A DNA stretch of 64,000 nucleotides from Escherichia coli O127:H6 str. E2348/69. GTDB lineage: Bacteria > Pseudomonadota > Gammaproteobacteria > Enterobacterales > Enterobacteriaceae. A program made the position numbers. Of the stretch, positions 51,401 through 54,400 are shown one piece after another; the stretch's first letter is position 1, and every line of letters begins with the position of its first letter. Location of the stretch: the NCBI RefSeq assembly GCF_000026545.1, contig NC_011603.1; one strand, given 5' to 3'.

Positions 51401-54400
51401 ATTGAACCTGCAGTAGAAGATGTGATTCGCCAGCAGTATAAAAATGTGGGTATTATCGCTACCGAGTTTACTATTAAAACGGGGTGTCACAAAGAGCTAA
51501 TAAAAAAATTGAACCCAACAATAAATATATTTGGAGAACCAAGCAAAAATCTTGCAATGTTAATTGAGGAAGGTAATCTTAATGCTCCTGCAATATTGAA
51601 TGATATCAAAAAACATGTTAACCATTTAATTTCCCTCCATCCAGTAAATGAAATTATTCTCGGCTGTACTCACTATCCAATTGTTCAGAATTTATTTGAA
51701 GCAGTTGCACCGGATATAAAATTTATTAATCCTGCACATGATCAGGCTATCTCTATTAAAAATCACTTGGGACAGCTAAATTTATTAAACTCCTCAAATA
51801 TAGGAACTTTGCAAATAAATACTAGTGGAAGTATGGAGATCTACAAAACGGTACTAGGGGAATTGAGCATTACGAAACCTCATACATTCAGTATCAGGCA
51901 GTTTTAAATTTATCCGGTGCACCGTAAAACCCCGTCCTTCTGAACTGCACCCCAAAAGTTGGACACCAACTGAGTAAGGTGCATTTTATGGGCAAACCCA
52001 GTTACATACTGGGTAGTGCATCCAATTAGTAGAACATGTGTTTTTCGATAAACGCTCCGATCACTTTTTCGTGGATCTCAACTGAGCGTGAGAAGCAGAT
52101 TGTTTTACGACCCAACCGCTTAATGCGGGTGCGTAGCGTCAGATTATTACGCTCAATGCATTGGGTGAATATTTTGCCGGTCAGATGCTTATTCTTCGGC
52201 ACCTCCCGGCCATAGCTGCCCCAGTCATCGCTGGTCAGCATGCCGATGTTGAAGGGTGTAAGCAGTGCCAGTAGCTCCCGGCACGTTTGATCGGTTCGGG
52301 GACCAAAAGTGTAGGCCAGTACACCGCCTGTTTTGGTGTTGTACGCGTACCAGATCCAGTGTTGCCGGGCTTTACTGCCAACGTAGCTCCATTGCTCATC
52401 AAGCTCGCAGATAAACGCCACATCAGCATGGGTAACAGGCGAAGAAGTTATTCGCTTTGGCGCGAGTTTTTTAAAGTCCGGATGACGGTGTTACTACCAA
52501 TTTTCAGTGTCCTGGCGGTATCGCGAACCCCGGCACCATTAAAGGCCATTTCAGTGATCAGCTCTTTCATACCCGGCTTACGTGCTTGATAAGTATAAGT
52601 GAGCTGAAACACACGGTGGCAGTCACGGCAGCGAAGTCTGTCACGGCCTTTAGGGTTCTGACCATGGCGGTAAACCTGAGCTGACTGACAACGGGGACAA
52701 TGAATATTAACTCTGGCCATGAGATAACCTCAAAAACCCGTATTATACATCAGATTCAACTAATTAGAGGCATCACCTATCCAGCATTATATAACATACT
52801 AACAATAACTAAATTATAATAATCACAACTTATAATCAAATAATAAACGCATAAAATCAACAATGATTTTTTCTGGTTATATTTATCTAAAAAACGGAAT
52901 ATTATGTAACCTATTATTTTCTAAGCGTAAATTTATTATGTGGTCAGACTAACAAACTTGCGTACCACCCGAAGAATATGCGAAAATTTAAGTATTCTTT
53001 CTTTTTTTATTTTTTCATTTTCTCTTTTCTTCTCTTTCCGGTTCTCTTCTTTTCTGGTTTTGGTTTTTTCCTTTTTATTTTTATTCTTTCTTCAGGGTTG
53101 TGCTAAAACACCAAAACATTTTTCACCACAAAAGCATCCAATCATCTTGCCAGACCAATCACCTTAACCGGATACACTGCCGGATATAATCCCACTAACA
53201 CCCAGCCACCCCGCACCATTCCTGATAACTACCGTATTCAGGAAGTTGAGCCCTACTCAATTGATGAAATGTTCATTGATTTGCGGGGGATAAATCATTG
53301 CATCTCTCCGGAGGCTTTTGGTCATCAGCTCAGGGAACAGGTAAAGAGCTGGACAGGACTCACCATGGGGGTGGGCATTGCGCCTACAAAAACGCTGGCT
53401 AAAAGTGCACAGTGGGCAACAAAGCAATGGCCACAGTTTTCCGGTGTGGTCGCGCTGACGGCAGAAAACCGTAATTGGATCTTGAAGCTACTGGGGCTGC
53501 AGCCAGTTGGTGAGGTCTGGGGAGTAGGACGCAGACTGACGGAAAAGCTGAATGCGCTGGGTATTAACACAGCACTGCAACTGGCGCAGGCTAACACGGC
53601 ATTCATCCGGAAAAACTTCAGCGTCATTCTTGAGCGTACGGTACGCGAACTCAACGGCGAGTCCAGCATATCCCTGGAAGAAGCACCACCGGCAAAACAG
53701 CAGATTGTCTGTAGTCGCAGTTTTGGTGAACGAATCACAGACAAAGATGCCATGCACCAGGCTGTTGTTCAGTATGCAGAGCGGGCCGCAGAGAAACTAC
53801 GTGGGGAGCGTCAGTATTGTCGGCAGGTGACGACATTTGTACGGACATCCCCCTTTGCAGTAAAAGAACCCTGTTACAGCAATGCCGCTGTGGAAAAGCT
53901 TTCATTGCCACACAGGACAGCCGGGGCATTATTGCCGCCGCATGCAGAGCCTTAAACCATGTCTGGCGTGAAGGGTACCGCTATATGAAGGCAGGAGTCA
54001 TGCTGGCTGATTTCGCACCATCGGGTATAGCGCAGCCGGGATTATTTGATGAAATCCAGCCCCGTAAAAACAGTGAAAAGTTAATGAAAACACTCGATGA
54101 ACTGAACCAGTCGGGAAAAGGGAAAGTGTGGTTTGCGGGGCGAGGAACCGCCCCTGAATGGCAAATGAAACGGGAAATGCTATCGCCTTCGTATACAACA
54201 CAATGGACTGAGATCCCCATTGCTTCATTCTGATATATCAGAATAATTTTTTCATTTTAAGACGCACATCATTCATTGCCTCCTGCACCGAATCAGTAGC
54301 AGAAGGAGGCATTTTTTCAACAGATTGCGAAGCACCGAGTTCAGTCAACACAGCTCTGATATCGGCCTGAGAAGGCTTCCATCCAGTCGTCTGACTGAGT

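Follow-up and report, generated by a model that had tools for sequence, protein, structure and literature searches.

How did a 5'-truncated umuC gene on a reference virulence plasmid of enteropathogenic Escherichia coli (EPEC) come to lie beside an AT-rich spacer with a long polypyrimidine tract, and does this tract have a function? The window, i.e., the complete 64,000-nucleotide stretch of DNA from E. coli O127:H6 strain E2348/69 that was analysed here, corresponds at 100% identity to the EPEC adherence-factor (EAF) plasmid pMAR7 (NC_010862.1), and the same spacer segment is present in plasmid pMAR2 of strain E2348/69. The spacer is flanked by an IS1-like insertion sequence (IS) element, ISEc30, on its left and by a 5'-truncated and frameshifted umuC on its right, in agreement with an earlier note on this DNA. 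The AT-richness described in that note holds (31.7% G+C at 52778-53235 vs. 50.3% for the whole window), but the right end of the spacer lies at 53245 instead of 53235. It had been proposed that the tract could be a remnant of foreign DNA, or a triplex-prone sequence that promoted the truncation of umuC.

The comparative analysis described here indicates that the spacer is very probably the captured right end of a chromosomal island of the CPZ-55 family. The explanation as a whole, which combines capture of an island end, entry by means of the island integrase, and a tract that is under constraint in its native context, is considered likely; its separate parts differ in strength and are weighed below.

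Origin of the spacer

The spacer was found in only five of 72,556 plasmid records, each of them either an EAF-type relative or a version of this segment cut by an IS, and in none of these does it adjoin an intact umuC; the tract is therefore not a common feature of related plasmids with intact umuDC. Matches were obtained in 448 of 5426 complete E. coli genomes, at 454 places of which 446 lie in the chromosome. Among the matches listed, all chromosomal ones end at the eutA stop codon. The spacer is covered for at least 80% in 133 genomes, with approximately 95% identity among the matches listed; homologues display 95% identity over 465 nt, and those of other lineages 81-87%.

Islands of the CPZ-55 family are located between eutA and eutB in E. 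coli chromosomes and encode the P4-type integrase IntZ, which has arm-DNA-binding, central, and catalytic domains. Their backbone includes an AlpA-like helix-turn-helix protein or excisionase and, in many variants, a 726-aa tape-measure-like protein. In strain WS3294A (L004) the island has the order intZ, small backbone genes, a glutamate-decarboxylase pseudogene (gadB'), gadC, murI, an IS1-type element, a spacer homologue, and eutA, and positions 48631-53245 of the window are colinear with it at 98% over 4.6 kb, from gadB' to eutA. The 468-bp spacer (52778-53245) is evidently the non-coding right end of such an island, and arrived together with the gadB'-gadC-murI cargo. The notion of a foreign remnant was thus sound, and it extends to the entire spacer, which elsewhere is found next to eutA.

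In viral contigs no match was found for a 21-mer from the AT-rich module within this island end, and the module itself had no match in 50,697 phage records. A 20-mer yielded four matches in unrelated metagenome-assembled genomes among 100,044 species representatives, which were taken as chance, with their flanks uninspected. The element seems to be restricted to eut-site islands of E. coli and the plasmid derivative of these.

Plasmid pMAR7 does not carry an intact mobile island, as intZ, the left arm, and the backbone genes are absent from the whole plasmid. The pMAR7 spacer is best regarded as an inert relic, because both the integrase and the eut operon are lacking. No complete island of the CPZ-55 type was found in plasmid collections. 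The only close IntZ hit, in a Klebsiella pneumoniae record, was considered as a plasmid-borne complete island, but was rejected as a probable artefact without att arms. This record, plasmid pHK02-026 (NZ_KY751926.1; L015 9002-15476), contains the K-12 CPZ-55 sequence at 100% identity from the second base of intZ to the stop codon of yffS, without both att arms and positioned between an ISEc23 transposase gene and mphA; boundaries that coincide exactly with coding sequences suggest an artefact or contamination, not natural capture.

Anatomy of the island right end

Alignment of chromosomal and metagenomic island ends resolved the spacer into an optional AT-rich, non-coding module (52778-53150, plus strand; approximately 375 bp, 27% G+C) that contains the tract, an 87-bp att arm (53151-53237, plus strand), and an 8-bp att core, TCAGGAAG (53238-53245, plus strand), which comprises the last island bases before umuC. 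The arm is common to all CPZ-55-family islands, including that of K-12 (approximately 80% identity). It contains two direct CCGGATA repeats (53168-53174 and 53180-53186) that are 12 bp apart, and the integrase-side arm also has this motif in direct and inverted orientation, with one of its copies overlapping the ribosome-binding region of intZ; these repeats are plausible candidates for arm-type integrase sites. In K-12 and the other strains compared the core is present at both island ends (attL, ..GTTCCCTCAGGAAGAA..; attR, ..CCGTATTCAGGAAGGAAAT..), and on the minus strand the eutA stop codon falls within it. An independent study describes an identical duplication of 8 bp immediately following the eutA stop (PMC6379469).

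The K-12 arm is annotated with a 41-aa hydrophobic open reading frame (ORF) that starts from an ATG right after the eutA stop and runs through the arm (L008 7957-8082, minus strand). In pMAR7-type arms (53151-53237, minus strand) this ATG is replaced by ATA, followed by a stop, for which reason the ORF is more likely a by-product of the CCGGATA repeats of the arm.

Approximately half of the CPZ-55-family islands have the module. K-12 CPZ-55 lacks it, and in K-12 and four other islands the terminator of the last gene is joined directly to the arm. Within 32 metagenomic right ends, the tract, called on basis of a maximum pyrimidine fraction over 80 nt of at least 0.88, was present in 15 and absent from 17. 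Module presence did not correlate with the integrase-side arm. The module was encountered in combination with differing cargo, including gadC-murI, the tape-measure gene only, and the tape-measure gene with three further genes; it is therefore part of the island end and not of any cargo. Moreover, the module is dispensable for integration, since half of the family lacks it.

The tape-measure gene of these islands (L051 9585-11765, also L006, L016, L018, and L052) encodes a protein of 726-732 aa that matches tail tape-measure families (phrog_1538, E 1e-104). The integrase islands that carry it are small, 7-11 kb, and no other recognisable virion genes were seen in them.

The island end, approximately 470 bp, has received at least five independent IS insertions in different hosts. 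These include ISEc30 at 52777/8, IS1 within the tract at approximately 53019 (L033), a transposase remnant that reaches approximately 53095 (L007, 5266-6000), IS1 at 53125 (L003, about 5003), and an IS3-family element at 53173/4 (L002, about 5475). The island end looks like an IS insertion hot spot, which fits the preference of IS1 for AT-rich DNA.

The umuC junction and the route into the plasmid

The umuC remnant (53244-54233, plus strand) is a frameshifted pseudogene that starts from nt 282 of the 1275-nt gene, and lacks the first 281 nt with the intact plasmid umuC of p92 (L009) as reference. Similarity to the island extends up to 53245 and that to umuC starts from 53244, leaving a 2-nt overlap (AG) that consists of the last two core bases, and no eutA base beyond the core is present at the junction. 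Intact umuC reads GGAGTCGCTTTC-TCCCGCAG-TTGAGCCC at this position, and the reconstructed attB reads TAAGTCGTTCCC-TCAGGAAG-GAAAT. Comparison over the B-arm plus core, in the register fixed by the junction, revealed 13 matches in 22 positions between the umuC site (GGAGTCGCTTTCTCCCGCAG) and attB (TAAGTCGTTCCCTCAGGAAG) (binomial 7e-4), and of the 10,314 positions scored along the 5.2-kb locus with intact umuDC, only 9 match attB to this extent (rank 9). Because the two homologies switch at the core edge and the site is attB-like, insertion into umuC by the island's own integrase is the reading toward which we lean, with IS-mediated loss of the remaining island thereafter.

In this mechanism, IntZ would recombine the island attP with the secondary attB-like site within umuC, the AG overlap of core and umuC would represent the crossover interval, and integration would split umuC at nt 281/282, with ..ACCGTATTCAGGAAGTTGAGCCC.. 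as the junction expected at the umuC site. Later IS-mediated deletions, involving IS1, IS911, and IS30, would have removed the integrase side, umuD, and the 5' end of umuC. Fragments of IS1, IS911, and IS30 are located immediately left of the cargo, which supports the loss of the integrase side by this route. All plasmid copies share one umuC junction, and the 5' part of umuC is deleted in all carriers.

Entry by the integrase is weakened by the core itself, which matches umuC at only 5 of 8 positions, and by the absence from pMAR7 of the reciprocal junction, i.e., the umuC 5' end joined to the integrase arm. With the reciprocal junction gone and no complete island on plasmids, this entry rests on one junction.

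Alternatively, the island end could have been captured from an island-bearing chromosome by IS1-mediated or illegitimate recombination, for example through cointegrate formation and subsequent deletion, with an endpoint at the att core that is coincidental. The region is dense in IS elements, the cargo is bracketed by IS1-type copies, and ISEc30 lacks a target duplication, so that IS-driven rearrangement certainly happened at this locus; in addition, the 2-nt microhomology at the junction is typical of illegitimate joins, and in a chromosomal copy eutA ends with the 8 bp of the core. However, the umuC junction has no IS end, the breakpoint is no more than 2 nt away from the right edge of the core with no eutA base past it, and the umuC target is attB-like at a fixed register, which makes capture of this kind the less probable route. 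The proposal that a triplex-forming tract caused the breakage that truncated umuC is very hard to maintain in spite of the H-palindrome in the tract and the repeated IS insertions into this 470-bp region, as 145 bp separate the umuC breakpoint from the tract and 182 bp from the mirror repeat, as this breakpoint coincides with the end of the att core in an attB-like site, and as the tract came with the island and was therefore not beside umuC before the event.

Two metagenomic sequences provide related observations. In L030 (6975-7000; compare L052 9995-10005) the right arm and core are joined to the middle (approximately nt 640) of the island's own integrase gene, exactly at the right edge of the core, at a target that is little like attB. 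This join may have arisen as an artefact of assembly, or may be the product of another aberrant recombination by the integrase. L028, which has the umuC junction, contains a module that is of the chromosomal (WS3294A) type on the left and of the pMAR7 type beside the core, and this mosaic suggests that plasmid and chromosomal copies of the island end have recombined.

The polypyrimidine tract and its mirror repeat

The tract (52995-53092, plus strand) consists of 70 T, 18 C, 6 G, and 4 A in 98 nt, i.e., 89.8% pyrimidine and 24.5% G+C, with a longest unbroken C/T run of 22 nt; its earlier description as almost pure C/T is fair. It is the most pyrimidine-extreme 98-nt segment of the 64 kb (mean 0.515, standard deviation 0.069, approximately 5.6 standard deviations), in line with its being called atypical. 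The second most skewed 98-nt segment is a purine-rich stretch at 41992-42089 (82% A/G; ..GGAAAGAAGAGGAAGAGGAAAAGAAGAAGAAC..), which is located in overlapping ORFs of 140 and 146 aa of doubtful reality. This stretch was rejected as a purine partner of the tract, with which it shares composition but not sequence.

Within the tract lies a homopyrimidine mirror repeat or H-palindrome (53023-53055), TCTTTTCTTCTCTT - TCCGG - TTCTCTTCTTTTCT, which is perfect over arms of 14 nt. The arms are 100% pyrimidine and the spacer between them is 5 nt, which corresponds to the motif for H-DNA (a short spacer between arms of 10 nt or more). Mirror arms of at least 14 nt were obtained in only 1.6% of shuffles of the tract (P = 0.016). 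A scan for pure purine or pyrimidine mirror repeats with arms of at least 10 nt and a spacer of at most 8 nt detected no other instance in approximately 300 kb of E. coli and plasmid DNA, including all of pMAR7, and no other purine or pyrimidine tracts were found in the islands.

The mirror repeat is kept in all seven sequence lineages, with arms of 13-15 nt and spacers of 4-5 nt. The version with runs (T4,T4) is of the pMAR7/WS3294A type and the version with (T5,T5) is found in seven sequences of the TBE6/F374 type; in L020 both distal runs are shortened to T3 and both proximal runs are extended by one T. No substitutions were detected within the mirror repeat among lineages, at a diversity of 0.1-0.28 in the flanks. 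Nucleotide diversity is 0.00-0.04 at 53056-53104, whereas the arm has values of 0.06-0.17 and the left half of the module approximately 0.2.

In negatively supercoiled DNA, H-palindromes exist in equilibrium with an intramolecular triplex, and transcription by T7 RNA polymerase is blocked in vitro by a stable analog of H-DNA (PMC4538819). The mirror repeat could in principle fold into such a triplex under negative supercoiling. As a property of the sequence, the term triplex-prone that was applied to this tract is therefore apt, given a perfect homopyrimidine mirror repeat that is retained in every lineage.

Possible roles of the tract in the native island

All island genes are on the plus strand, and the eut operon is on the minus strand and is transcribed from eutA into the right end of the island. 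Read-through from eut enters at this end, and the motif is therefore the first unusual DNA that it meets.

The tract could be functionless, a slippage-prone simple sequence that hitch-hikes with the island and that owes its conservation to recent shared ancestry or recombination. This is a serious possibility, though short of an even chance, and one about as likely as that of a DNA-level element. It is consistent with the absence of the module from half of the family with no matching change in the integrase-side arm, with the free variation in T-run length in the 5' part of the tract, with the mosaic nature of island ends, as in L028, and with the lack of any promoter, terminator, ORF, or RNA fold found in the tract. 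Conversely, no part of the island end varies less than the 3' 80 nt of the tract, which are below even the putative integrase sites, across lineages with flanks that differ by approximately 20%; the changes in arm length are matched in three lineages, and a perfect 14-nt mirror is rare in shuffled sequence.

A DNA-level element in the native island, either a structural barrier or insulator against eut read-through or an architectural accessory of the long att arm, is put forward tentatively as the preferred reading. The more specific proposal that the mirror repeat is a selected and working supercoil-responsive H-DNA element of a mobile island is rather unlikely. Positioned at the entry point of eut transcription, it would serve as a barrier dependent on orientation or induction or, in excision, as an architectural switch, with compensatory changes in both arms to preserve its mirror symmetry.

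Several findings count against this functional reading. About half of the islands at the same site have no module and show no compensating change in the integrase-side arm. The L032 version of the mirror repeat is slightly asymmetric (T4,T5), and the symmetric variants correspond to two or three independent changes among few sequences, with frequent slippage in T-runs. The conserved block runs approximately 45 nt past the mirror repeat (53056-53104), and something else may therefore account for the constraint. At neutral pH, mirror arms as short as these (14-15 nt with four cytosines) come close to the minimum for H-DNA. Finally, R-loop-type blockage requires a G-rich purine strand (PMC3561996), and the purine strand of the tract is A-rich, not G-rich.

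At the RNA level, the tract could act in plus-strand RNA as an unstructured, U-rich stretch with C in excess of G that serves in Rho loading (rut) or in Hfq or S1 binding, and so would stop transcripts that leave the island towards eutA, or function in the intZ mRNA leader in the excised circle. A rut site consists of at least 70-80 nt of unstructured RNA, rich in C and poor in G, in a transcribed region. The 98 nt contain 18 C vs. 6 G and have no stable predicted fold, and in the circular form the module would lie approximately 400-600 bp upstream of intZ on the same strand. Against this, C accounts for only 18% of the tract, no conserved promoter is present inside the module, and in IS-free lineages an intrinsic terminator precedes the module, and little plus-strand transcription is therefore expected to reach it; an RNA role also leaves the mirror symmetry unexplained, and it is considered improbable. 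A search of Rfam 15 with E values up to 10 gave only a chance snoRNA match, far below threshold and located within the IS. RNAalifold on seven lineages predicted a weak fold of -12.9 kcal/mol over 244 columns with one compensatory pair, and promoter and terminator scans of three lineages detected no positionally conserved site, with counts at the level of shuffled sequence.

Weakest is a coding function, in which the tract would specify a small hydrophobic peptide: a 42-aa Phe-rich ORF (52978-53106, plus strand) and a 75-aa lipoprotein-like ORF (52940-53167, plus strand) are candidates, and a 47-aa minus-strand CDS for a basic peptide is annotated in strain TBE6, but the ATG of the 42-aa ORF is ACG in other lineages, tract indels of 1, 1, and 5-11 nt between lineages shift every frame, the TBE6-type minus-strand frame stops before the tract in pMAR7, and the plus-strand ORFs arise automatically, because a pure pyrimidine run cannot hold stop codons, so that this reading has next to no credibility. 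A gene for a small protein or type I toxin on either strand was rejected, as frames and start codons are not conserved, and tblastn with the neighbouring island proteins revealed no similarity in the module.

Cargo and flanking insertion sequences

The cargo (48639-52011, plus strand; 37% G+C) consists of gadB', a gadC-like antiporter gene (49604-51064), and the glutamate racemase gene murI (51086-51907), and is also present in chromosomal islands, 98% colinear in the case of L004. It is followed by the complete ISEc30 (52012-52777, minus strand), of which the outer end adjoins the right-end module. No target-site duplication of the kind left by a simple IS1 insertion (8-9 bp) was found around ISEc30, and its flanks, TACATACTG and TATCCAGCA, differ. 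On the left, the cargo is directly adjoined by the terminal repeat (..GGATGCATCACC) of an IS1-type fragment (48448-48638, plus strand) that ends at 48638. This fragment, annotated in pMAR2 as a partial IS1 transposase, matches the IS1-type element of the chromosomal island at 80% in inverted orientation, and represents the truncated left IS of a composite-transposon-like unit.

The cargo is thus bracketed by the IS1-type fragment and ISEc30, with equivalent IS ends facing the cargo, and the unit between IS1-type ends is also found in at least 133 chromosomal eut-site islands. Between backbone and cargo, L004 (4797-4866) has a solo inverted IS911 terminal repeat of approximately 60 nt and, after it, the last 8 nt of an IS1-type end. 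Where L004 has these last 8 nt, pMAR7 retains 190 nt of the IS1 copy, and neither copy therefore derives from the other. A 70-bp match at 44593-44662, first read as an inverted island piece and then as an antirestriction gene, proved to be the IS911 terminal repeat.

Comparison with known systems

CPZ-55 of K-12 (intZ-yffL..yffS, between eutB and eutA) has the same site, the same core TCAGGAAG, and the same integrase family as the pMAR7-type island, and its right arm of approximately 90 bp is about 80% identical to the pMAR7 arm, with the CCGGATA repeats in common. It differs in having neither the AT-rich module nor the pyrimidine tract, and in its cargo; the pMAR7 copy in turn is a fragment without integrase that resides in plasmid umuC instead of the eut operon.

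The island end resembles the lambda-type attP in its arm-binding integrase and in a short core with repeats to either side that are candidate arm-type sites, and its long arm is like the lambda P arm, non-coding and on the side away from int. Insertion at a site that is partly identical to attB, as proposed for pMAR7, is likewise seen in secondary-site integration of lambda. Unlike lambda, the island has an extra, dispensable module beyond the conserved arm, and we know of no mirror-repeat element in the lambda arm.

The mirror repeat has the sequence hallmarks of H-palindromes, i.e., arms of 14-15 nt that are pyrimidine throughout, a perfect mirror symmetry, and a spacer of 4-5 nt, but its arms are short and T-rich. 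The well-studied H-palindromes are eukaryotic or synthetic inserts, and not conserved parts of bacterial mobile elements.

The cargo unit is reminiscent of the IS1 composite transposons Tn9 and Tn1681 in having two IS1-type copies with ends facing the cargo. In contrast to these, the left IS copy is truncated and shares only 80% identity with its right counterpart, and no target duplication survives. The spacer lies outside this IS1-bracketed unit.

Significance

The kinds of feature involved, a relic att arm, an H-motif, and secondary-site integration, are already known; the pMAR7 instance and the conservation of a mirror repeat in an island arm appear to be undescribed. Homopurine-homopyrimidine mirror repeats are few in bacterial genomes, and we know of none that is a conserved part of an att arm.

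The captured island end accounts for a gap without annotation in a reference EPEC virulence plasmid, and makes the gadC-murI block and the truncation of umuC two faces of one event, the capture of an eut-site island. For the tract, the biological meaning depends on the symmetric changes in the mirror arms: if these are not upheld, it is a conserved low-complexity hitch-hiker and an ordinary finding, and if they are true, the island end would offer a compact and genetically tractable case for a selected role of H-DNA in bacteria. For the CPZ-55 family, the locus would represent an integrative island that has used a conjugative plasmid as a landing pad, which is a possible travel route for islands that are not themselves conjugative.

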